Below are positions 39,509-57,656 of a stretch of DNA of 64,000 nucleotides, piece by piece. This DNA comes from a virus. Lineage: Duplodnaviria > Heunggongvirae > Uroviricota > Caudoviricetes. The stretch spans positions 39,743-103,742 of IMG/VR virus record IMGVR_UViG_3300048850_000064; one strand, written 5' to 3'. The translations under genes and the position numbers were made by a program. How positions within the stretch are numbered: the stretch's first letter is position 1; every line of letters begins with the position of its first letter. The notes under the pieces were generated by a model, which was given only the letters and a program-made list of their open reading frames with translations, was not told the origin of the DNA and did not search any database.

Positions 39509-39756
39509 GGTGCGACCAGTGCAGATTCTGGACTGCTAAGGAGAATATCGAGGATACCGATGCGCAGCTCGTCGGCGTGCGAAGGTGCACCAGGGTTCTC
39601 GAGCTCTGGCAGGCGACCGAGTGGGACGACGATTGCGAGCGCGTTCTGAAACCCGGCTTCGAGGAGCAGAAAATGTTCGTGATGGACGGATCTTGCTACG
39701 CGGCGCACCTCTACACGCGGCCGGAGTTCTTCTGTGCTCATTTCGAGGTGATCTGA
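39505..39756 (+). CDS. Cys-rich hypothetical protein
   Basis: ATGA overlap. Confidence 0.45.
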   Translation: MRCDQCRFWTAKENIEDTDAQLVGVRRCTRVLELWQATEWDDDCERVLKPGFEEQKMFVMDGSCYAAHLYTRPEFFCAHFEVI

Positions 39757-43123: not shown

Positions 43124-43143
43124 CTATCCGCACGATGCCAGCC

Positions 43144-43169
43144 GCACGCCACGTCAGCCTGTGAGATTG
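43144..43169 (+). promoter_or_regulatory. Class-2 promoter-like motif GCACGCCACGTCAGCCTGTGAGATTG
   Basis: Family members at 44638, 47076, 48248, 48637. Confidence 0.4.
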
Positions 43170-43574
43170 TAAATCATCAACAGAGCGAACGAACGAGAGC
43201 GAGCGCAGCGACAAATGACCTGGAATTACTGACGCGGGTGGCTCCCGCCGAACTAACAGCCCGGCCCGGATAAAGCCGTCATCCCACATACGGTAGGCGT
43301 AGCTGATACAGAGGCAGGCGATGGAGCCGGAAGCCTCGGCACGCTGATCCCGATTGTCGCCCACTCACTTAGAGATCCGGGGTGAAATTTCTGCCTGTAT
43401 GCCTCACAGGGTCCGGCTAGACCGGCCGTAGGTGTTGTCACAGTGAATGCCGCTTGAGTGCTCACGATCCACTCCTAGATCCGTATCCCGCTGCCTTTTG
43501 ATGCCGACGCAAGCACGAAGGAGTGATGACGGTGCGGAGTGTGATCAATGAACACTCGGTAAGGAGAGACGCCG

Positions 43575-43865
43575 ATGACCAATTATCTCCGCAAAATGCT
43601 GAACGCCGCTTCCGGCGAGGGCTTCAAGTTCGAGGTTCAAGGAGGCGGTGACGAGGCCGACTATATCGGCCATCACCCCGCCGGCGCCGAGGAGGCTCTC
43701 GTTGCCGTGGAAGAGGCCGAGCTGATCCTCTTCGATGCCGAGGGCAAGAAGGTGGCATGGGCCTTGATCCTGCCCGGCCTGGCACCCGACGAGGTCGTCG
43801 CCGATTGCGGCGCCGGTGACTGGATCGATAAATGGTGGAGCCGGAACGCCGTAGCCGCGGCTTAA
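43575..43865 (+). CDS. Hypothetical protein
   Basis: 96 aa, ggagag RBS. Confidence 0.5.
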   Translation: MTNYLRKMLNAASGEGFKFEVQGGGDEADYIGHHPAGAEEALVAVEEAELILFDAEGKKVAWALILPGLAPDEVVADCGAGDWIDKWWSRNAVAAA

Positions 43866-44113
43866 CCCGGCCTGGTAGCAAAAGGCGTGGAACTTTACCT
43901 CTATTACGTGCGTTCCACCGCTGCCGGCAAAACCCCTTGAGCCGGCGCGACGGCATGTCTCTTGCCTGTCGACAGCCGGGAGCGAATGCGCTGACCTCGC
44001 CTGCTGCTCCCGGCACCCGCCGCTCTCAATCCTTCAGTTACCGACCGATCTCCAATCGAGCCATTGCTATAACGCAATCATCGAAAGTAAAGCGCACTGC
44101 GCAGGAGAGATAG

Positions 44114-44359
44114 ATGGAAAACCTGGTGAACGAAGCGGTTATCGAACCGGAAGACGGTTTCTCGTTCGACGCATACGAATTCTCAGACAACCTTGAGCCC
44201 CTCACCAAACGCGCCAGTGACGAAGGCGAGCACTTTCCGGCCATCTTCTTCCGAAATCGCTCTACCGGAATGCTCTACGTCGCCAAGCGCATGACGCTGG
44301 TCAAGGGTGACCAGTCGGACGGCTCAAGCAATTGGGAAATCGTCGTCGATATCGAGTGA
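44114..44359 (+). CDS. Hypothetical protein
   Basis: 81 aa; GCTATAACG motif at 44064. Confidence 0.5.
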   Translation: MENLVNEAVIEPEDGFSFDAYEFSDNLEPLTKRASDEGEHFPAIFFRNRSTGMLYVAKRMTLVKGDQSDGSSNWEIVVDIE

Positions 44360-44637
44360 CCGCTTCGGCCTCGAGGCGAAATCGGCTATCCAGGCTCGAA
44401 CGCTGAGAAGGGCCTGACAACGCGCAGCCGGCGGTCGTGTTGGTCATAAACAACACCGGCAGTCAGGGGCACCTGGGTCGTTTCTGCCCAAACGCTGACC
44501 TGGCCCGAGGGGAGTGGGAGGGTGTTGCCGCACCCTCCCCTCGGTTCCCTATAGAGAGCCATGGCGCGGCAATGCCACAATCTTCCACGGATAAATTGTG
44601 CCATCCGTGCCCTGCAGTTACCAACCGAACGCCGTTG

Positions 44638-44653
44638 CAGCCTGTGCGATAAG
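44638..44653 (+). promoter_or_regulatory. Class-2 promoter-like motif CAGCCTGTGCGATAAG
   Basis: Read directly. Confidence 0.4.
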
Positions 44654-44688
44654 AGAGCATCAGCAACGCGAGAGCACCGAGAACAGCG

Positions 44689-45875: not shown

Positions 45876-46845
45876 GCCAGCACCTCTGCCGTGGCGTCTA
45901 CAACAGGTCCACTTCCGGTCAGGCCAGAAAGACCATAGTTTACGCCACGGACAACAGATTTTATCAAGCCACTTGAACCATCAAGTGAATAACCAGCACC
46001 AAGGTTTTCCGCGGGTTTACCTCCCAACACCCGCAAAATCATTTCAGCAAGCGTCAACCCGTCTGACCCTGCAATCAAAACAGCGCTCATTTCGGCCAGG
46101 GAAGCTCCAGGGCTCGATCCGACACTCTCCGACGTAGAACGACGCAGAAAACTCGCAAACGCTCACCAGCGCGCTCCCTAGAGAGAAAACACGAAAGCAA
46201 TAAGGAACGAAGGCCAGTAAGGGCGAATAGATATCCAGAGAGCACCGGACCTATAGAGCCCGACAGCAGCAAGCGCATAAGGGAGCACCACGGTCATAGA
46301 GAGCAACAGAGAGCCCATGGACCTATAGAGCCACGGTTATAACCAATCCGCGAGAAAGGTAATAACGAGAGAGGGGATATGTCAGAGAGGTGTGTCTGCG
46401 CGGGAGGTTCCGCGCCACGCCTCACCCACATCCCGACCCCTCGCCCCTGTCCACCCCTTCCCTCGCCTGACCACGGACACCCTGAAGCTCCCGCCCTTCG
46501 CCTGTTTCATCCCATCGCGAACAAAGCTATACAGAGCATGAGACGAGCGCTTGTGTCCGAAGCAGCTCTTTCCGGCCGATGTCATTGTCCAGCCGGAACT
46601 CTTGGAAGCGTTGCAACCATCCAGGCGGACAATGGGTGCACCTTGGCCGGGCTCCTCGACAGAGGATGCTCGGCTTCTTTTTGGCGATTCCAGGAACCAA
46701 GGCGTATAGAGCCCCAGCGATCGGCCCATGGGTTGAGCCCGTGCCGGACCATGGTCGACCGAGGTGAACCGTGGTCTTTCTGATCGACCGCGGCTGACCA
46801 TGGAGTGCCGGAGATCGTTACGCCTGCGAAACGAAAATCCGGGAG

Positions 46846-46897
46846 CGTTTTCGTATAATACTATCTACTATCTAGGTATCTAACATCTATACGAAAC
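46846..46897. repeat. IR-flanked AT-rich element (CGTTTTCGTATA-N30-TATACGAAAC)
   Basis: Second copy at 61617-61671. Confidence 0.6.
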
Positions 46898-47075
46898 CAA
46901 GGCGAAAAAGAGTCTGGATTAAGACAGGCTCGCCACATTCTCCCTGGCTCATTCTCCGGCACTGACCACCCTTCCCGGCCCTATAGAGAGCCCATGGTTC
47001 ACCATGGCGTGCCGGCCGCGGCTCCCAGCCGTGCCTCGCCTTGCCGGAGCTCCGATTTGCCTGCCCTTGCCGTTC

Positions 47076-47126
47076 GCACGCCACGACAGCCTGTGCGATA
47101 CAGATCATGTCAGCAATGACTGACAG
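47076..47126 (+). promoter_or_regulatory. Class-2 motif GCACGCCACGACAGCCTGTGCGATACA followed by operator palindrome TGTCAGCAATGACTGACA
   Basis: Read directly. Confidence 0.45.
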
Positions 47127-47147
47127 CAACGCTCACGAAGGAGAGAC

Positions 47148-48008
47148 ATGATGAGCAAGCGCAAGATCAAGACCATCGAGCACGCCGTCGAAGTGATCGA
47201 ACAAGACACCGCCCCGGTTCTCGAGGGCGACAGCACCTATCTGACGCTCGAGGACCACAAGGCGATCATGGCCGACTACGAAGAGTTGGCAGCCGCCGAC
47301 GTTGCGACCGTCGCCGCCCTCGAGGCAATCGAAGAGGCTGTTGCCGAGCAGTCCGAGGAAGCGCCGGCCGGTGAGCCGGATCATCAGCCGAGCCTGCTCG
47401 AGCTCGTCGCCTCGGTCGAGCAGGATCCGGAGGATCTCGACACCGCCCGCAAGCAGGTCGCTGCCGCCTTCGACACCCGGGCAGACTTCGAGCGCAAGAA
47501 GAACCCGGACAACGAGTCGATCCAGACGAGCCTGAAGAAGAGCCGGGCGAAGCTGACCCAGGGGCGCTCGGTGGCGATCCTGATGTCGGCGGGTGCCGCA
47601 CCCGACTTCATCACCCGGTCGACGAATGAAGGCTCCGCCTACAACGTCTACGCGGCCGACAAGGTCGCCGACCTCGTCAACGCCTTGAACTCCGGCGTGA
47701 TCGGCAACGCCATCAACAACGCCGTCTGCCGCTCGCTCTTCAGGTTCCGGGCCGCGGGCGAGGCCTTCACCGGCGAGATGGCGCGTGCCGCAGCGTCCGA
47801 CAAGCTGCGTGTCCAGGGCACGATCGCCAAGCTGCTCGTCCGGCACACGGTGTCGCCGTCGACCGCACCGACCCAGGCGTCGTCGACGATGCAGGCACTG
47901 CAGACGCTCGGCATCGTCAAGAACACCGGCACGACGCGCGCCCCGGTCTATGCACTGACCGACAGCCCGGCAGCAAAGCGGCTCGAAGCCGTCGTGATGG
48001 CCGCATAA
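47148..48008 (+). CDS. Hypothetical protein (286 aa)
   Basis: gaaggagag RBS. Confidence 0.55.
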   Translation: MMSKRKIKTIEHAVEVIEQDTAPVLEGDSTYLTLEDHKAIMADYEELAAADVATVAALEAIEEAVAEQSEEAPAGEPDHQPSLLELVASVEQDPEDLDTARKQVAAAFDTRADFERKKNPDNESIQTSLKKSRAKLTQGRSVAILMSAGAAPDFITRSTNEGSAYNVYAADKVADLVNALNSGVIGNAINNAVCRSLFRFRAAGEAFTGEMARAAASDKLRVQGTIAKLLVRHTVSPSTAPTQASSTMQALQTLGIVKNTGTTRAPVYALTDSPAAKRLEAVVMAA

Positions 48009-48294
48009 CAAGAGGAGGATGAAGAAAGAGGCTCGCTTAGGCGGGCCTTTTTCGTGTCTGGCACGGGACCATGGCTTGCCCTGGCGCGGTTGCTAGGAAC
48101 CTTGGGCTTCCGTGGGCTCCGCCGACTGGAACCACGGGCGAGGAACCAAGACAGGCCCACCATAGAAAGCCGGTCCAGGCAGCCCGAGGCGGACCATGGC
48201 TCGCCGGGGCGTCGGGGAAGCCTCGAGATGCCAGCCGAGTGCCGTTCGAGCCTGTGCGACAGTTCTCATGCGTCAAGTGACGAGGAGACGAGAC

Positions 48295-48513
48295 ATGCGC
48301 CTGCCCGAATACGTCCACGAAGCCAACGTCGCCGGCCTCGAGCAGGCCAATGCCAAGCCGGTGAAGAAGACGCCGCGGCCCGACAACTGCCCGGAGCCCG
48401 CCTGGATCGCCCAACGCATCCGCGAGCTCGACGGCAATCTCAGCGCCCAGGAAGCCCTGTTCTACGCCCTGCCGCTCGAGGTGCAGGACGAGGTCTGGAA
48501 GCACCTGGCCTGA
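48295..48513 (+). CDS. Hypothetical protein
   Basis: gaggagacgagac RBS; class-2 motif at 48248. Confidence 0.45.
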   Translation: MRLPEYVHEANVAGLEQANAKPVKKTPRPDNCPEPAWIAQRIRELDGNLSAQEALFYALPLEVQDEVWKHLA

Positions 48514-48684
48514 CCCAGGAACCAGGCGTGCTCCGGCGCTCCTGGTTGCTCTTCCGGGCGACAGCGACCGTGGCAGACCATGGCGGGCCGCGGCTCCCGC
48601 CTGAAGCGTTGCCTCGAGATGCCACCCGACTGCCTCTGAAGCGCGTGCGATGACAGTGATGCAACGTAAACAAGAGAGAACGAC

Positions 48685-48840
48685 ATGACCTACGAAGTAG
48701 TCGAATACAAGAACGGCCAGCGCAAGGTGCACCTGTCGACAGACGACCGGTTCGAAGCGCGCGACGAGTTCAGGTGGCTCGAGGACCGCAAAGAGCAGCA
48801 CGACGCGACCATGGGCACGATCAAGATCGAGACGAAGTGA
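48685..48840 (+). CDS. Small hypothetical protein (51 aa) MTYEVVEYKNG...
   Basis: Hand-translated; class-2 motif at 48637. Confidence 0.35.
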   Translation: MTYEVVEYKNGQRKVHLSTDDRFEARDEFRWLEDRKEQHDATMGTIKIETK

Positions 48841-48847
48841 GGTGAAG

Positions 48848-49192
48848 ATGACCTACGAAGAAGCAGCCGCGGTCAAGACGCTGACCAGAGAAGAGATCGG
48901 ACAGCTCTGGTCCGCCTACTATGGCATCATACCGAACACCGAGGTAGATGACGGCATCGCTACTCCTTGGCGTCGCACCATGCTCGAGGCACTGATTAAG
49001 ACGGCGCCTCTGAGTTACAGGCGTGCGCTGGTGAACGTCGAAGGTAACGAGTTCACAGGCTTCTTTCCGTGGAAAGACGAACGCGACAACGACCGGCTCG
49101 TGCAGATCGCGATCGCCGACAACGACGAGACCTGTATGTGCGACGCAGAGGTCTCTGACTGGTCCTGGTATCTCTCGTCGAAAATCGACTGA
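48848..49192 (+). CDS. Hypothetical protein (MTYEEAAAV...)
   Basis: Shares MTYE start with upstream small gene. Confidence 0.45.
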   Translation: MTYEEAAAVKTLTREEIGQLWSAYYGIIPNTEVDDGIATPWRRTMLEALIKTAPLSYRRALVNVEGNEFTGFFPWKDERDNDRLVQIAIADNDETCMCDAEVSDWSWYLSSKID

Positions 49193-49527
49193 AGCAAGGC
49201 GAGCTCCGGCTCGCCTTTCGCATGACCGGAATCAGCCATGGTCCGGTCTGGTCCCGGCCAGGCCAGGCGGTCCCGTGGCAGCCAGGCCAGGAACCAAGCG
49301 CGTGCGACCACGGTCTTTCGGCACCCAGGCACCCCGCGGCCCTACCATGGCGCGCCCTCCCCTACCCTCAACCTCGGCAACCCATGGCTCGGCGGCTCCC
49401 GCCGGAGGCTCAGCCTGCGGCCGTAACGCGCCGTCACTTGCCGACCGAGCGCCTGATTTCAGCGTGCAATAGTGTTTTCGTGCTTAGACGAAAGCACGAA
49501 AGCAACGCTAATCAGGAGACAACGAAA

Positions 49528-49803
49528 ATGCTCAAGACCTCGACCCGCTTCTCGCCCTCGATCGTTCGCGCCGCTGAAGAGCTCGAAGCAGCCTGCGCGC
49601 TCTTCCAGATCTCGCCGAACTCGAAGCATGCCGAGTATCAGCCGACTCACAGCGACATGCTCAGGCACTGCTTCCGGCACGCTGCCGGCTTCGTCTCGCC
49701 CCTCGGCGAGAAGTCGATGGCACTCGTCGGCGAATGCATGCAGGCGCTCAGAGACGAACGCGTGCGCTCATTCGCCATGAAGCGCGCAGCACTCGCTGCC
49801 TGA
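49528..49803 (+). CDS. Hypothetical protein
   Basis: caggagac RBS; preceded by IR TTTTCGTGCTT-agacg-AAAGCACGAAAG. Confidence 0.45.
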   Translation: MLKTSTRFSPSIVRAAEELEAACALFQISPNSKHAEYQPTHSDMLRHCFRHAAGFVSPLGEKSMALVGECMQALRDERVRSFAMKRAALAA

Positions 49804-49820
49804 CGCGCCGGAGAGATCAG

Positions 49821-50000
49821 ATGAACCAGATCTTCGTTCCGGCAATCGACTTCAGCTCAGCGCGCGAAAGGCGCGCTGCAGCCGAGCGTGCGGCCAAGGT
49901 CAAGCGCCGGCAGTTCATCAAAGAGGTCGTAATCGACATCGTCGGCCTTGGCTGTCTCGCCTGGTGCGCCTACGTCGCGATCGACCTCGCCCTCTTCTAG
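49821..50000 (+). CDS. Small membrane protein
   Basis: ggagag RBS; C-terminal TM. Confidence 0.4.
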   Translation: MNQIFVPAIDFSSARERRAAAERAAKVKRRQFIKEVVIDIVGLGCLAWCAYVAIDLALF

Positions 50001-50167
50001 TCGACCAGGAGCTCGCCGGGGCTAGGAACCGGTGGGCTCCAAGGGAGCCGCCGGGCGGCCGGCAACGCCAGGAACCGACCGCGGCATTTCCAGGAACCGG
50101 CACATCCACGGCTCACCATGGCTCCTACCGCGGCTCCCGCGCCACGCGCGGGCCGCGCGCCTCGCTC

Positions 50168-50212
50168 GTAGTTACGCTTCGCGTGCTCGTCTGCGCTTCA
50201 AAGCGTAACTAC
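50168..50212. repeat. 12-bp inverted repeat GTAGTTACGCTT-N21-AAGCGTAACTAC at left edge of low-GC island
   Basis: Read directly. Confidence 0.6.
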
Positions 50213-50614
50213 ATCTCTAGCGCTCAATACGCGCGCAACATGCGAACGACGTCTATTTCGTCTCGCTTATAAACACGCGCTGTATAGCGCATATTACGAT
50301 TGTCTAAATAAGCAGCGATTTGTGCTTTCGCTTGCTTGCGCGCGCGCTCACGTTCACGCTTGCGTCTGACAGTTTCTGTCACGTCGATCGATGATTTAGA
50401 CATTGCTAAATCTTTCGCGCTGACGTCTGTAATAAGCGCTCATGCGCTTGCGCTTGTCGCGCTCACGCAATGCGCGTCGAAGATCGTTGTTTGCTTTGCG
50501 CGTGTTAAGCAGCGCTGCTTTCAATCTCAGATATATTAGCATGTTCTTGAATCTCGCTTTCGAGTGAAACGAAAGAATGACGCGCTGCAGAGCGCGTCAT
50601 TCATAAGTGACTGA

Positions 50615-51205
50615 TTATTGAGCGTAACGTTCAAGAATCGCTTGTGTCAGTTTCGAGTCTGTATTGAGCGCGTAAACGTCTTTCGTCGACGTTTCGCGCA
50701 AGATATCGAGTGCACACAATGCTTTCAAAGACATCGATGCTTGACGTTTTGCAGCGCTCACGATTGTTTCGCGACGTGAGATATACTTTTCTCTTTCTTT
50801 CGCGACTTCAATCGCTTTGTCTTTCTTGCTTGTGCACGACGCGTAAGCATCGTTGCGCGTCATCGTGAGACTATCACGATGCAGATTGATTGCAGTTTCA
50901 AGCACAGTTCTTGCATTGTCTGTCTTGATATTAGCAACTGCTTTGAAAGCGAACTGCAGATAATCTGCAGTTCTAGCAATCGCTTTCATGCAAAACTTCG
51001 AATTTACATTCTCGTAAGCGTTGATGAATGCAGAGCTCATGTCTTGCTGCGCAAGCAGCGCGACGAATTGTGTGCTCGCATAGACTTGCTTTGCTTTCTT
51101 CAACAGAGCAATTGATGCATCGCATGCAGTTGCTTTCTCTTGCGTCTCGAAAGCGATACGAGTTTCGATAGCAGCGACGAAAGAGTTTACAGTTTCGTTT
51201 GTCAT
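50615..51205 (-). CDS. Hypothetical alpha-helical protein encoded in low-GC island
   Basis: 196 aa minus-strand ORF; local GC ~45% vs ~62% elsewhere. Confidence 0.5.
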   Translation of the reverse strand: MTNETVNSFVAAIETRIAFETQEKATACDASIALLKKAKQVYASTQFVALLAQQDMSSAFINAYENVNSKFCMKAIARTADYLQFAFKAVANIKTDNARTVLETAINLHRDSLTMTRNDAYASCTSKKDKAIEVAKEREKYISRRETIVSAAKRQASMSLKALCALDILRETSTKDVYALNTDSKLTQAILERYAQ

Positions 51206-51783
51206 TGTCTTGTCTCTCTTGTTTAACGTTGACTGTTTTATTGTTGTTTCATTCTGTCATGTCGCGCAAAGCGCAAAGCGCTTGCGTCGAAGATGATCTA
51301 TTCAGTTGTCAAAGAGCGCTGCATTTCTGCAGTGACTCTTTCTTCGCATGTTTCTGTGTGAGTCGTCAAGTGACTTTATGCGCTTGTGACTTAAAATATG
51401 TGCTTTTCTGCGATAGCGTTTAGTTCGCTCATAGAGACGCATAGACGCGCGTTCTTGCTTGTGTGTCGCGAGATACTCACTTGTGCGTCTATCGCGCTCT
51501 ACGCGCTTGTGTGTGCGATTGTGCGTCTATCGCGTCTGTCACTGTCATTGCACGTTGCTTGCTTGTCATCGTCGCGCTGATCGTCGCGCGCTCGACATGA
51601 TCGACGCCCGATCCCTCCTAGAGAATTAGCGAAGTCTTAGAAAATGCGACGTGACGTGATCCGGATGCCGCCTGTCACCCTCGTCTCCCCGGTTCCTATC
51701 CACCTCTGTCTGTGGGCTGCCCAGGAAGGTCCGGATCTTTGCGGTGGATCGACGGATGGTTGGTTGCTTGGTGGTTGATGGTG

Positions 51784-51804
51784 ATCAGTCACTATTGACT
51801 GACT
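51784..51804 (+). promoter_or_regulatory. Operator palindrome ATCAGTCACTATTGACTGACT
   Basis: Read directly. Confidence 0.45.
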
Positions 51805-52016
51805 ACGGTCGCGCCGGCTACATTGGGCGAAATCGTTCTTGCACGAATGGACGAAGGCCCGATGCTCTACTTTACGATCCTGATGTTCTGCCTGCTCGGT
51901 CAGGCGCTGCTCTGCTTCGCTCCGCCCTTCCCTGTCTGCCACTGCCGCTCCTGGCGTGATCTCGTCGACCTCGAACGGATCCGCCGGCTGTTGCGTCGCT
52001 AACCCCTGAGGATCCG

Positions 52017-53393: not shown

Positions 53394-53648
53394 TCAATCG
53401 TTCTTTCTGGCTTTCTCGCGCTTCCACGCCTCGAAGGCTTGCTCGAGCAGGCCTTTCAGCTTCAGGCCGTTGACCGCGGCCGTCACCTTCATTTCGTGGG
53501 CGAGCTCCGGCGATACCTTGAAATTCAGGTCGACGTATTTCTTCTCGCGGATGTTGTCGGGTGCTGCAGCCGGCTGAATGGTCGGGATTTCGCCCAAGCC
53601 CGTCGCAAAGCCGGCACGGGCGCGAGGTCTGACGGGTGCCTTGGTCAT
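53394..53648 (-). CDS. ParG-like small partition DNA-binding protein
   Basis: 84 aa immediately downstream of parA, overlapping by 4 nt. Confidence 0.45.
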   Translation of the reverse strand: MTKAPVRPRARAGFATGLGEIPTIQPAAAPDNIREKKYVDLNFKVSPELAHEMKVTAAVNGLKLKGLLEQAFEAWKREKARKND

Positions 53649-54301
53649 GCGGGTGTTGCCTCCTGGTCTTCCAGTTCATTTGCGCGGGTGACGATCTCGG
53701 TTGCGAGCGTCTCGGCGCGTTCGTTGAGCGACGGGTGATCGGTCTCGGAGACCGCGGCGCCGATACCCTGAGCGTTGTGATAGCTGGTCTTTACCGGCAG
53801 ATCCGTCTCGGCATAGCGAAAACCGGCCGCGGTGATGAAGTCCTGGGCGTTTCTGAGCGCCGGCGCCGAGCCGATCGTCTGGTTGATGACGAAGAGCAGC
53901 CGGTCGCGCTTGACGCCCTTGGCGACGAGCTCGTTGGCAAACATCACTTGCGGCCGCAGGTCGTCGACCGAGACGCCGGTCGGAATGACGTTGAGGAGCG
54001 CCACCCGGGCCGCTTCCAGCGAGGTCGTGTCGGAATCGGGCTTGCCATCGACGACGATCAGGTCGTGGCTTTCCCGGGCAAGCGCCTTGACCGAGGAGAA
54101 CGGCTCGGCCGCGATCTGCGGCTCGAGGCTGTTGACCATCCGCAGCGCCACCCAGTCGACCGAGGTTTTCTGCTTGGTGTTGAAGTCGGCGATCTTCACC
54201 GACCAGCCGGCAGACGCATAGGTCCGGGCAATGAGCCGGGCGATCGTCGATTTGCCGACGCCGCCCTTTTGCGAGAGACAGGTGATGATGAGCGCGGCCA
54301 T
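53645..54301 (-). CDS. parA: ParA-family partition ATPase
   Basis: Deviant Walker A SQKGGVGKST; ~218 aa type-Ib size. Confidence 0.7.
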   Translation of the reverse strand: MAALIITCLSQKGGVGKSTIARLIARTYASAGWSVKIADFNTKQKTSVDWVALRMVNSLEPQIAAEPFSSVKALARESHDLIVVDGKPDSDTTSLEAARVALLNVIPTGVSVDDLRPQVMFANELVAKGVKRDRLLFVINQTIGSAPALRNAQDFITAAGFRYAETDLPVKTSYHNAQGIGAAVSETDHPSLNERAETLATEIVTRANELEDQEATPA

Positions 54302-55537: not shown

Positions 55538-55557
55538 GGGAGCGTCTCCTGTGAGAA

Positions 55558-55584
55558 AGTCAGTAATGACTGACTATATAGCGG
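55558..55584 (-). promoter_or_regulatory. Promoter/operator signature on minus strand (rc CCGCTATATAGTCAGTCATTACTGACT)
   Basis: Read directly. Confidence 0.55.
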
Positions 55585-55612
55585 GCGACGCGAAGTTCGT
55601 CGGGGCAGGGCG

Positions 55613-57616: not shown

Positions 57617-57648
57617 GATATATAGTCAGTCATCAATGACTGACTGAG
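57617..57648. promoter_or_regulatory. Divergent promoter region with palindrome TATATAGTCAGTCATCAATGACTGACTGA
   Basis: Between minus helicase gene and plus 57657 gene. Confidence 0.55.
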
Positions 57649-57656
57649 GATTTACC

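Follow-up and report, generated by a model that had tools for sequence, protein, structure and literature searches.

The gene-free spacers between positions 45,880 and 50,330 of the window, by which we mean the whole 64,000-nucleotide stretch taken from the Caudoviricetes record IMGVR_UViG_3300048850_000064 (positions 39,743 to 103,742), are conserved control regions of a phage-plasmid. They are built from repeated directional cassettes that carry arrays of a 6-bp palindrome, CCNNGG, at a pitch of 10 bp, and their sequence makes it highly probable that these are protein-binding arrays. Two DNA-binding proteins encoded nearby are candidates for the binder: a ParG-like ribbon-helix-helix protein encoded together with a ParA-type ATPase, and a 286-amino-acid (aa) winged-helix protein encoded inside the block. 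The former is slightly favoured. Judged by its genes, the window is part of a 116-kb alphaproteobacterial phage-plasmid of the RHEph10/pLM21S1 group.

The spacing of the palindromes is the most distinctive property of the block. The window contains 409 CCNNGG sites, among which 14 pairs lie at exactly 10 bp, and every other distance from 6 to 40 bp is represented by at most six pairs. Thirteen of the 14 pairs fall within the 1,460 bp of the five spacers, and the remaining one, at 45999, lies in the 1.27-kb region upstream of the winged-helix gene. For the spacers, first-order Markov resampling (2,000 trials) gave an expectation of 0.14 such pairs and a maximum of 4. The lag-10 autocorrelation of CC, GG, GCC, and GGC is raised 2.2-4.4-fold in the spacers, with weaker peaks at 20-21, and is absent in coding controls; the GCC periodicity of about 10 bp continues into the promoter-like unit. 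Distances between neighbouring CCATGG sites in the window and 16 related loci peak at 10 bp (25 cases), 20 bp (11), and about 31 bp, and the flanks of these sites show CC..GG every 10 bp. In an independent set of 27 metagenome loci, the peaks are again found at 10 bp (16 cases) and 20 bp (8). The clustering of phased sites is confined to this block, both in the 64-kb window and in the 114 kb of RHph_N1_15, where it is not near repC or parA.

Outside the family, IMG/VR was also searched for CCTAGG or CCATGG in triplicate at 10-bp pitch. The inspected CCATGG matches, in unrelated contigs (L087 6172-6257, L085 5893-5928, L088 3798-3823), are perfect tandem 10-mers such as (CCATGGgcat)x9, i.e., simple repeats unlike the variable-spacer arrays. 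Triple CCTAGG occurs in 23 contigs, which is above chance by a rough estimate of the collection size, and these contigs carry neither candidate binder, so that association points to neither of the two.

The recurring words of the block are parts of one cassette present in at least five copies (Table 1). It starts with the intrinsic terminator that closes the preceding gene, continues with AGGAACC boxes (one to three) and the 10-bp-pitch CCNNGG array, and finishes with a promoter-like unit with leader and ribosome-binding site (RBS). The arrays are usually centred on CCATGG, with GGCTCCC as their right flank, as in CCGAGG-cgga-CCATGG-ctcg-CCGGGG (48184) and CCGTGG-caga-CCATGG-cggg-CCGCGG (48568); GCGGCTCCCGC is likewise the right flank of a CCNNGG cluster. 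The AGGAACC box overlaps a CCNNGG unit in the forms GGAA-CCAAGG, GGAA-CCTTGG, and GGAA-CCACGG. In relatives, the AGGAAC box extends to about 20 nt, ATTT-AGGAAC(C/G)G(G/C)T(A/G)GGG, and it may be the site of a second protein. Its interpretation as the -35 element of an ECF-type promoter was rejected, since a conserved -10 element at 16-18 nt is absent and the bases directly 3' of the box are conserved.

The 41-nt promoter-like unit, ..(T/A)T(G/A)CC..CCGA..GCC..GCCTGTGCGATA, is followed by the common leader CAGCAACGC and an RBS. Six copies were detected by repeat search (family D1), each ending 33-48 nt 5' of an ATG; a seventh, before 49528, and an eighth, at 46528 and before no open reading frame (ORF), were found by eye. 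Its -10 element resembles the alphaproteobacterial consensus CTATAT. The unit is not a canonical sigma-70 promoter and its -35 element is weak, which suggests dependence on an activator or on the group's own sigma-70-family protein. The family does encode such a protein of ECF size (EVB78_082 of RHph_N1_15, L033 1494-2129, located after cobS; the homologue falls outside the window), and it may read the shared unit. A generic promoter and terminator scan gave matches at chance level only and missed the real features. The leader of the winged-helix gene also contains a TGTCAG..CTGACA inverted repeat (47108-47126), to which the AGTCAGTCAT/ATGACTGACT palindromes at 57619-57654 and 55542-55591, in the promoter regions of the minus-strand helicase-parA operon, are related; together they could be operators of another regulator.

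The spacers had been described from the sequence as lacking convincing ORFs and as saturated with short words, and this description largely holds. The six plus-strand genes between them (Table 1) have GC contents of 0.73-0.90 at the third codon position (GC3) and 0.31-0.49 at the second (GC2), and the genes called in 42-50 kb have GC1/GC2/GC3 of about 0.6/0.4/0.71-0.90. ORFs within the five spacers show a flat composition, 0.55-0.75 at all three positions, without a GC3 signal. Six-frame translations of 43.0-52.5 kb compared with 17 related loci revealed no conserved coding in any of the spacers at E<1e-4. Of the words, CCATGG, for which at least 12 copies had been claimed, occurs 14 times within 46315-50121; the window holds 27 copies, against 12.9 +/- 3.5 in shuffled sequences, and 27 was reached in 0 of 100 shuffles. 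GGAACC had been counted at least eight times, and AGGAACC is indeed present eight times on the plus strand of 46692-50098 and never on its minus strand (14 in the window against 5.3 +/- 2.5 expected). The four reported copies of GCGGCTCCC exist, at 47018, 48590, 49392, and 50130, the third having been placed 7 nt off, at 49385; the copy at 47018 runs on as ...AGCC, not ...GC. The counts of these three words are far above chance. CTATAGAG recurs as stated, but in three or four exact copies (46251, 46323, 46981, and, just outside the interval, 44549) instead of five, with the variants CATAGAGAG at 46293 and CTAGAGAG at 46177. The purine bias noticed at 46130-46380 is real (65% purine, 10% T). 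A GC content of 65-70% is roughly right for the four short spacers (62-66%) but not for the 1.27-kb region, which at 56.7% lies under the window mean of 60.6%. Finally, the interval 50000-50330 is composite: 50001-50160 is an array of 75% GC, and 50161-50330 is the start of a minus-strand cassette of 49% GC that includes the coding sequence 50224-50403.

The same layout was found around the 286-aa gene in most relatives examined (protein identity about 40-76%), although their spacers cannot be aligned by BLASTN. Megablast of the spacers against phages and plasmids gave no match, and distant BLASTN reached only the coding part of the 286-aa gene. Searches of genome, viral, and metagenome collections returned no relative above about 57% protein identity; the sole close relative, contig L026 (protein identity 76%), was found by protein-cluster look-up, and an exact 25-mer of the AT-rich island described below gave no match. 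In relatives, the order within the gap upstream of the gene is a short-repeat array, a T-poor tract with ATAGAG(A/G)G, a C-rich tract (followed in several relatives by a terminator ending TTTTTGG), the AGGAAC box, CCATGG arrays, an AT island, and a GGCTCCC(A/G)GCC hairpin. CCATGG clusters stand on both sides of the 286-aa gene and in the next few spacers, with up to 28 copies per 10 kb. Compared with L026, the 1.27-kb module is 76% identical overall, about the level of synonymous sites (77%), but conservation is blocky, with blocks of 90-94%: motif segments, terminators, promoter units, and the AT island are kept, whereas the spacers between motifs and the number of units vary. The motif segments of cassette B are identical in L026 and its spacer 48150-48180 differs, and the array at 46692-46803 does not have the same number of units. 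GGCTCCCAGCC, from the segment 46981-47030, is kept in L023 and pLM21S1, and 50025-50053 of cassette E is 90% identical to L001 7378-7406 of RHEph10.

The core of the palindrome differs among lineages. In pLM21S1, CCATGG is absent and is replaced by CCAAGG cores with AGGAACGG boxes; B1VFA has CCTAGG and CCAAGG; and a bog-metagenome lineage (L050, L053, L054, L060) has CCTAGG, in 13-19 copies per 3-4 kb. Across these sequences, the invariant is CC-N2-GG at 10-bp pitch, and the central dinucleotide is, from its distribution, a lineage-specific "specificity" position.

Among the explanations offered in the preliminary description, transcription-factor or nucleoid-protein binding arrays are well supported by the 10-bp phasing, the strand-strict asymmetric words, the position between terminator and promoter-like unit, the conservation of motifs and not of spacers relative to L026, and the shared architecture. 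Decayed mobile mini-elements (MITE- or REP-like), or a chance or compositional effect, would account for the recurrence of words in several spacers. Nevertheless, no terminal inverted repeats or target duplications are present, the copies share motifs only (the longest shared stretch is 41 nt at 66-76% identity) and cannot be aligned beyond them, the asymmetric words occur in one orientation, and chance is excluded statistically. The architecture is moreover kept at orthologous positions, even though the winged-helix protein is only about 40-76% identical. These explanations are effectively refuted, and we give them next to no probability.

Table 1. Positions of features in and around the array block (window coordinates).
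Feature	Position	Strand	Details
Conserved non-coding module, 1.27 kb	45895-47147	+	Directly upstream of winged-helix gene
CCAAGG-N4-CCGCGG pair	45999-46026	+	Over two GGTTT(T/A)CC repeats 11 bp apart
T-poor (10% T), purine-rich tract	46130-46380	+	(C)ATAGAG(A/G)G x4; composition
C-rich, G-poor tract	46381-46520	+	Directly 3' of T-poor tract
Candidate small RNA	46528-46685	+	Predicted transcript ~46540-46685 (~145 nt); promoter-like GCTATACAGAGCATGAGA at 46528; terminator hairpin 46645-46675, then UUCUUUUU
Intrinsic terminators	46645-46675, 48024-48053, 49194-49221	+	-19 to -23 kcal/mol; z -3.3 to -4.6
AGGAACC box and phased array	46692-46803	+	AGGAACC 46692; CCATGG 46726; CCATGG-N4-CCGAGG-N4-CCGTGG 46749-46774; CCGCGG-N4-CCATGG 46788-46803
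AT-rich island	46840-46900	.	36% GC; perfect TATAAT; four ATCTA repeats; composition
CTATAGAGAG, CCATGG-N4-CCATGG, CCGCGG	46981-47030	+	In this order; CCGCGG overlaps mini-hairpin GGCT-CCC-AGCC
Promoter-like unit, leader CAGCAACGC, and RBS of winged-helix gene	47060-47147	+	..TTGCC..CCGA..GCC..GCCTGTGCGATA; repeat family D1
286-aa protein	47148-48008	+	C-terminal winged-helix DNA-binding domain (confident); only block gene present in all related loci
Plus-strand genes	47148-48008, 48295-48513, 48685-48840, 48848-49192, 49528-49803, 49821-50000	+	ORFs, ribosome-binding sites, GC by codon position
Cassette B	48009-48294	+	Terminator 48024-48053; AGGAACC 48095, 48141
Cassette B arrays		+	Pairs CCATGG/CCCTGG 48069, CCTTGG/CCGTGG 48100; triplet CCGAGG-CCATGG-CCGGGG 48184-48209; promoter unit 48221-48261
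Cassette C	48514-48684	+	AGGAACC within hairpin 48520-48547; promoter unit 48612-48652
Cassette C array		+	Triplet CCGTGG-CCATGG-CCGCGG 48568-48593, running into GCGGCTCCCGC
Cassette D	49193-49527	+	Terminator 49194-49221; CCATGG 49236; AGGAACC 49289; leader hairpin
Cassette D arrays		+	CCCAGG-CCGCGG-CCATGG 49324-49350; CCTCGG-N4-CCATGG 49372-49387; GGCGGCTCCCGCC 49390; promoter-like unit 49431-49471
Cassette E, truncated	50001-50160	+	AGGAACC 50024, 50070, 50092; hairpin GGCTCC-AAG-GGAGCC; no promoter unit; abuts low-GC minus-strand cassette
Cassette E array		+	CCACGG-N4-CCATGG 50106-50121; GCGGCTCCCGCG 50130
Upstream promoter-unit copies	43128-43168, 44031-44071, 44611-44651	+	Upstream of the interval first described; repeat search
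CTATAGAGAGCCATGG	44549	+	In region 43128-44688
84-aa ParG-like ribbon-helix-helix protein	53394-53648	-	Profile of seven homologues: ParG 1p94 (TP228) E 9.7e-5; omega 1irq (pSM19035) E 0.29 (weak)
ParA-type ATPase	53645-54301	-	Pfam CbiA 7.6e-7, MipZ, ParA

On these arrays, dimers of an element-encoded DNA-binding protein would sit in consecutive major grooves along a single face of the helix and bind cooperatively, so that a nucleoprotein complex would form just upstream of each promoter and regulate it. The anatomy, phasing, conservation, and non-coding status of the arrays are shown, as are the folds or family assignments of the two candidates, whereas binding by a protein, the identity of that protein, and the sign of regulation are inferred. 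Tentatively, at somewhat less than even chance, the binder would be the 84-aa ParG-like protein, which by its similarity would form a type Ib partition pair with ParA, and the arrays would be operator-centromere arrays working like the omega/ParG sites of type Ib partition. Dispersed in this way, they would couple segregation of the plasmid-prophage to the regulation of the winged-helix gene and of the small variable genes downstream of it: in the carrier state, the arrays would control these genes and may also supply the partition site. A ribbon-helix-helix binder is favoured because a ParA and ParG-like pair needs an arrayed-repeat centromere and none lies by its operon. In addition, the ParG-like proteins of 17 of 17 distinct readable related loci with CCATGG arrays, and that of the window, share the predicted DNA-contact strand D(L/M)(N/S)F(K/R)x, and the CCAAGG/CCTAGG lineage (pLM21S1, B1VFA) has GMTFNM instead. 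The recognition helix of the winged-helix protein, TQASSTMQ, is the same in the bog lineage with CCTAGG and differs from one CCATGG user to another. This co-variation of the contact strand with the palindrome core tilts the assignment to the ParG-like protein.

Several observations weigh against this assignment. No cluster in the window exceeds three contiguous 10-bp units, against five or six in relatives, and pSM19035 needs at least four contiguous repeats (PMC9499535). The arrays lie 3.2-7 kb from parA, the ParG-like and ParA genes being 3.2 kb beyond the last array; none stands at the par promoter, and no repeat arrays were found in 52.7-58.0 kb, beside the par operon. With 60-90 bp between the end of an array and the -10-like element downstream, simple promoter occlusion is not obvious. 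The co-variation represents one independent motif switch, and the recognition helix of the winged-helix protein also differs in the pLM21S1/B1VFA lineage (TQKSSTMT). Contig L010 keeps CCRYGG arrays despite a divergent ParG-like strand, SFGFRV, and CCATGG sites persist by the winged-helix gene in non-phage contigs that have no ParA or ParG-like gene within 7 kb. AlphaFold2, run on the single sequence of the 84-aa protein, gave a poor and uninformative model.

A possible, if rather unlikely, alternative is that the adjacent winged-helix protein binds the arrays, either as an autoregulator or activator acting on phased upstream sites, like OmpR/PhoB, or as a replication initiator. In the latter variant, the AT-rich island would be an unwinding element and the arrays would be initiator-binding or copy-control sites, as in the incC-repA-incA arrangement of P1. 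In the loci examined, arrays stand on either side of the gene, which is the sole universally conserved gene of the block and encodes a confident winged-helix domain; the AT island, the most conserved non-coding block, lies between arrays, and a Shinella plasmid record begins exactly at this gene. The module also travels with the winged-helix gene to non-phage contigs: the module is present together with the gene (63-73% identical) in L023 (5240-7699) and L027 (5400-7723), and also in L024 and L025. These contigs encode RepA-RepB, a Flp/Tad pilus, Wzy, and MucR; repC is absent within 7 kb, and CCATGG is kept (6 in 1.45 kb). This portability keeps the origin variant alive. Against the protein as binder speak the behaviour of its recognition helix described above and the presence of arrays before four unrelated small genes. 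Against the origin variant, the protein showed no Rep-family or RepC similarity in Pfam, PDB, and fold searches beyond a generic winged helix, neither a CtrA site nor a DnaA box (one mismatch allowed) is present in the region, and the units are 6-bp palindromes at 10 bp, not direct iterons of 17-22 bp. The near-perfect conservation seen in the AT island points to a promoter or a specific site more than to a mere unwinding element. A RepC replicon moreover exists in the family, and plasmid replication of pLM21S1 has been assigned to a 2.8-kb repC fragment located elsewhere (PMC4447125). The probability left by the two candidates falls to another protein or a host factor. A reader of DNA methylation was rejected because no methyltransferase can be identified in pLM21S1 (PMC5537653).

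In every annotated or gene-called relative inspected, the place of the 1.27-kb module is taken by a gap of 1.2-1.8 kb without genes, and homology to L026 starts abruptly near its edge at 45895. At the position of the CCAAGG-N4-CCGCGG pair, relatives have arrays of GTTGAC or ATGTTTCC. The T-poor tract and its ATAGAG motif are shared by N1_15, pLM21S1, L010, L023, and B1VFA, and the motif is restricted to this region genome-wide; ATAGAGAG from this tract was rejected as a genome-wide promoter for this reason. The AT island is the best-conserved non-coding block, with 46862-46925 about 100% identical to L026 (synonymous sites 77%), and equivalent islands exist in N1_15, L023, pLM21S1, L010, and B1VFA. 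The non-phage copies of the module are without the terminator and small-RNA part and have an extra 60-aa ORF. One wider proposal, which we regard as distinctly unlikely, is that the 1.27-kb region and the winged-helix gene form a portable and self-contained module for maintenance, of a kind so far undescribed, which would be an alternative replicon or a unit of immunity that moves between phage-plasmids and repAB replicons of Hyphomicrobiales. Its parts would be a small RNA, an AT-rich core, and CCWWGG initiator or regulator sites, and the downstream arrays would act as copy-control or silencing (handcuffing-like) sites or nucleate a one-face coat silencing the block in the plasmid state.

The earlier proposal that the spacers are small-RNA genes or structured non-coding RNAs is largely set aside, except for one candidate of about 145 nt at 46540-46685. 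This candidate has a promoter-like unit at 46528 that aligns with the shared ones, 84-94% identity to L026, and a terminator hairpin (-23.4 kcal/mol, z -3.3) whose stem pairing is kept by two-sided changes in L026 (TCCTC/GAGGA vs CTCTC/GAGAG); the T-poor tract with its repeated AUAGAGAG could likewise be a protein-sponge-like RNA. As an explanation of the spacers in general, structured small RNAs are nonetheless very unlikely. No Rfam family reached its gathering threshold in the whole window, where matches at E<=5 were at chance level (best E 0.03-0.08), and no tRNA gene was found. The fold of the whole candidate has a z of only -2.2, and RNAalifold with ten relatives found no consensus structure because their sequences are not alignable. 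The arrays stand after terminators and before promoters, and palindromes phased at 10 bp with variable spacers are a property of duplex DNA. Outside the block, the spacer before the 44689 gene contains a sub-threshold match to the Rfam Proteo-phage-1 RNA (44385-44464, plus strand; 28.2 bits vs gathering 42, E 0.077).

The presence of a terminator and a promoter-like unit in each spacer also recalls the PeSL cassettes known from T4-type phages (PMC2839356, PMC4122927), and the spacers could be composite terminator-promoter cassettes of mainly evolutionary significance, serving as recombination points for the shuffling of small variable genes. In agreement with this, four of the five small inter-cassette genes lack homologues in the 17 related loci despite conservation of the cassette architecture, and homology to L026 begins abruptly at the module edge. 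On the other hand, the 41 nt that the copies share at 66-76% identity make them a poor substrate for homologous recombination, and 150-250 bp of phased palindromes, absent from PeSLs, would be left unexplained. We consider this reading unlikely as an account of the arrays; a PeSL-like role is in any case compatible with protein binding and not an alternative to it.

It is highly doubtful that the block is, or borders, a direct terminal repeat of virion DNA in which the arrays serve packaging, end formation, or staged entry. Similar roles have been proposed for the repeat-rich terminal regions of T5/T7-type phages. The block measures 3.5-4.3 kb, is sharply bounded at 45895 and 50160, and consists of small genes with their own promoter-like units; terminal repeats of 3.6 kb and about 3.9 kb are reported for B1VFA, whose ends are fixed, and V1VFA-S, respectively (PMC12509600). 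However, the position of the repeat in B1VFA is neither given nor annotated in the record, the ends of contigs from relatives lie elsewhere, and the arrays also occur in plasmid-resident copies.

Beyond the last array, the foreign-looking, low-GC cassette (50161-52000, minus strand, about 49-52% GC) contains a hairpin with a 12-bp stem (50171-50213). Its genes 50224-50403 and 50615-51205 have a GC3 of 0.46-0.47, against 0.71-0.90 in every neighbour, and its 196-aa protein, without a Pfam or PHROG family, is kept at the same place in seven related loci. This cassette could be a horizontally acquired or immunity-like unit.

The PHROG matches in the window (rIIA/rIIB, SbcC-like nuclease, ribonucleotide reductase, RtcB, ligase, helicase, and terminase) indicate a large tailed phage. 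The nearest deposited relatives are the Rhizobium phages RHEph10 and RHph_N1_10/N1_15/N2_6 (rIIA identity 65%). The 286-aa protein is 100% identical to a JGI protein from a 115,768-bp contig, and its homologues are encoded on 115-119-kb plasmids of Shinella, Methylobacterium, Sinorhizobium (pLM21S1), Rhizobium, and Pararhizobium. The RHEph10/pLM21S1 group has been described as plasmid-like prophages or phage-plasmids with repC, parA, and parB (PMC4447125, PMC7969092, PMC12509600). Because the element belongs to this family, the term phage early region, from which the preliminary description had started, needs qualifying, and variable early/maintenance block of a phage-plasmid describes it better. 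Among the deposited records, the annotated translation of RHEph10 gp103 (L001 6476-7363) cannot be aligned with other family members although the DNA is homologous, which probably reflects a frame error in the record, and the annotated gp104 (L001 5856-6419) occupies sequence that is non-coding in all relatives. The circular record of the Shinella zoogloeoides plasmid NZ_CP132310.1 (L021 1-777) opens at the first base of the winged-helix gene, as if chosen by a start-gene rotation tool.

What is known of the phage-plasmids of Rhizobium, Sinorhizobium, Mesorhizobium, Shinella, and Methylobacterium comes solely from genome announcements and a single test of replication. In about 116 kb, this block is the only place with dense, conserved, helically phased cis-elements, and with two candidate DNA-binding proteins nearby it is the obvious entry to the lytic-versus-plasmid choice and to segregation in these elements. 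The series CCATGG/CCTAGG/CCAAGG offers a natural specificity series for protein-DNA reading. If the ParG-like protein is the binder, omega-type centromere-operators would be extended to a Gram-negative phage-plasmid, with sites dispersed from the par operon.

Among known systems, pSM19035 omega/delta and the ParG-ParF parH/OF system of TP228 likewise pair a small Walker-type ParA with a ParG-like ribbon-helix-helix protein. Omega arrays are cooperative, consist of short repeats upstream of several promoters, and serve as both operator and centromere; orientation is tolerated and contiguity matters (PMC9499535). The present arrays differ in having 6-bp palindromes at 10-bp pitch with variable 4-bp spacers instead of contiguous 7-bp heptads, and in standing at some distance both from the par operon (3-7 kb) and from the promoter core (60-90 bp upstream of it); their host is an alphaproteobacterial phage-plasmid. 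ParG-type sites are ACTC tetramers, unlike these palindromes. The parC iterons bound by ParR are ten 11-bp repeats flanking the promoter in R1 and 10-bp half-repeats in pSK41. As in this class (reviewed in PMC5016525), the arrays would accommodate one ribbon-helix-helix dimer per helical turn and stand beside a promoter. ParR/parC, however, is a type II system with an actin-like ParM and direct repeats at a single locus, whereas here a ParA ATPase is accompanied by palindromes at five or more loci. PeSLs of T4-type phages share the repeated terminator/promoter modules by small lineage-specific genes, but they are short and without binding arrays; here, the copies look too divergent to recombine efficiently, and the unit is not a canonical sigma-70 early promoter.

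Palindromes bound by partition proteins upstream of several operons, some of them distant from the promoter, are known for KorB of RK2 and, as dispersed SopB sites, for N15, where they link segregation to global regulation. Those sites are single palindromes of 13-16 bp bound by helix-turn-helix ParB proteins, in contrast to phased arrays of 6-mers. In the oriR of the phage-plasmid P1 (incC-repA-incA), as in the present block, the gene of a DNA-binding protein is flanked on both sides by arrays of its sites, here presumed ones, with an AT-rich island upstream. The present block differs from it in the lack of Rep homology and DnaA boxes, in 6-bp palindromes instead of 19-bp direct iterons, and in the RepC replicon already present in the family; of the features of an iteron origin, the AT-rich element between arrays is present and tandem direct repeats of about 17-22 bp are absent. 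Collectively, helically phased short-repeat arrays bound by small dimeric proteins are of an already known kind. As far as the searchable literature shows, the element described here is new in its combination of CCWWGG palindromes at 10-bp pitch, arrays in at least five spacers of a phage-plasmid, lineage-specific cores, and an attached 1.27-kb module that also occurs in repAB replicons.

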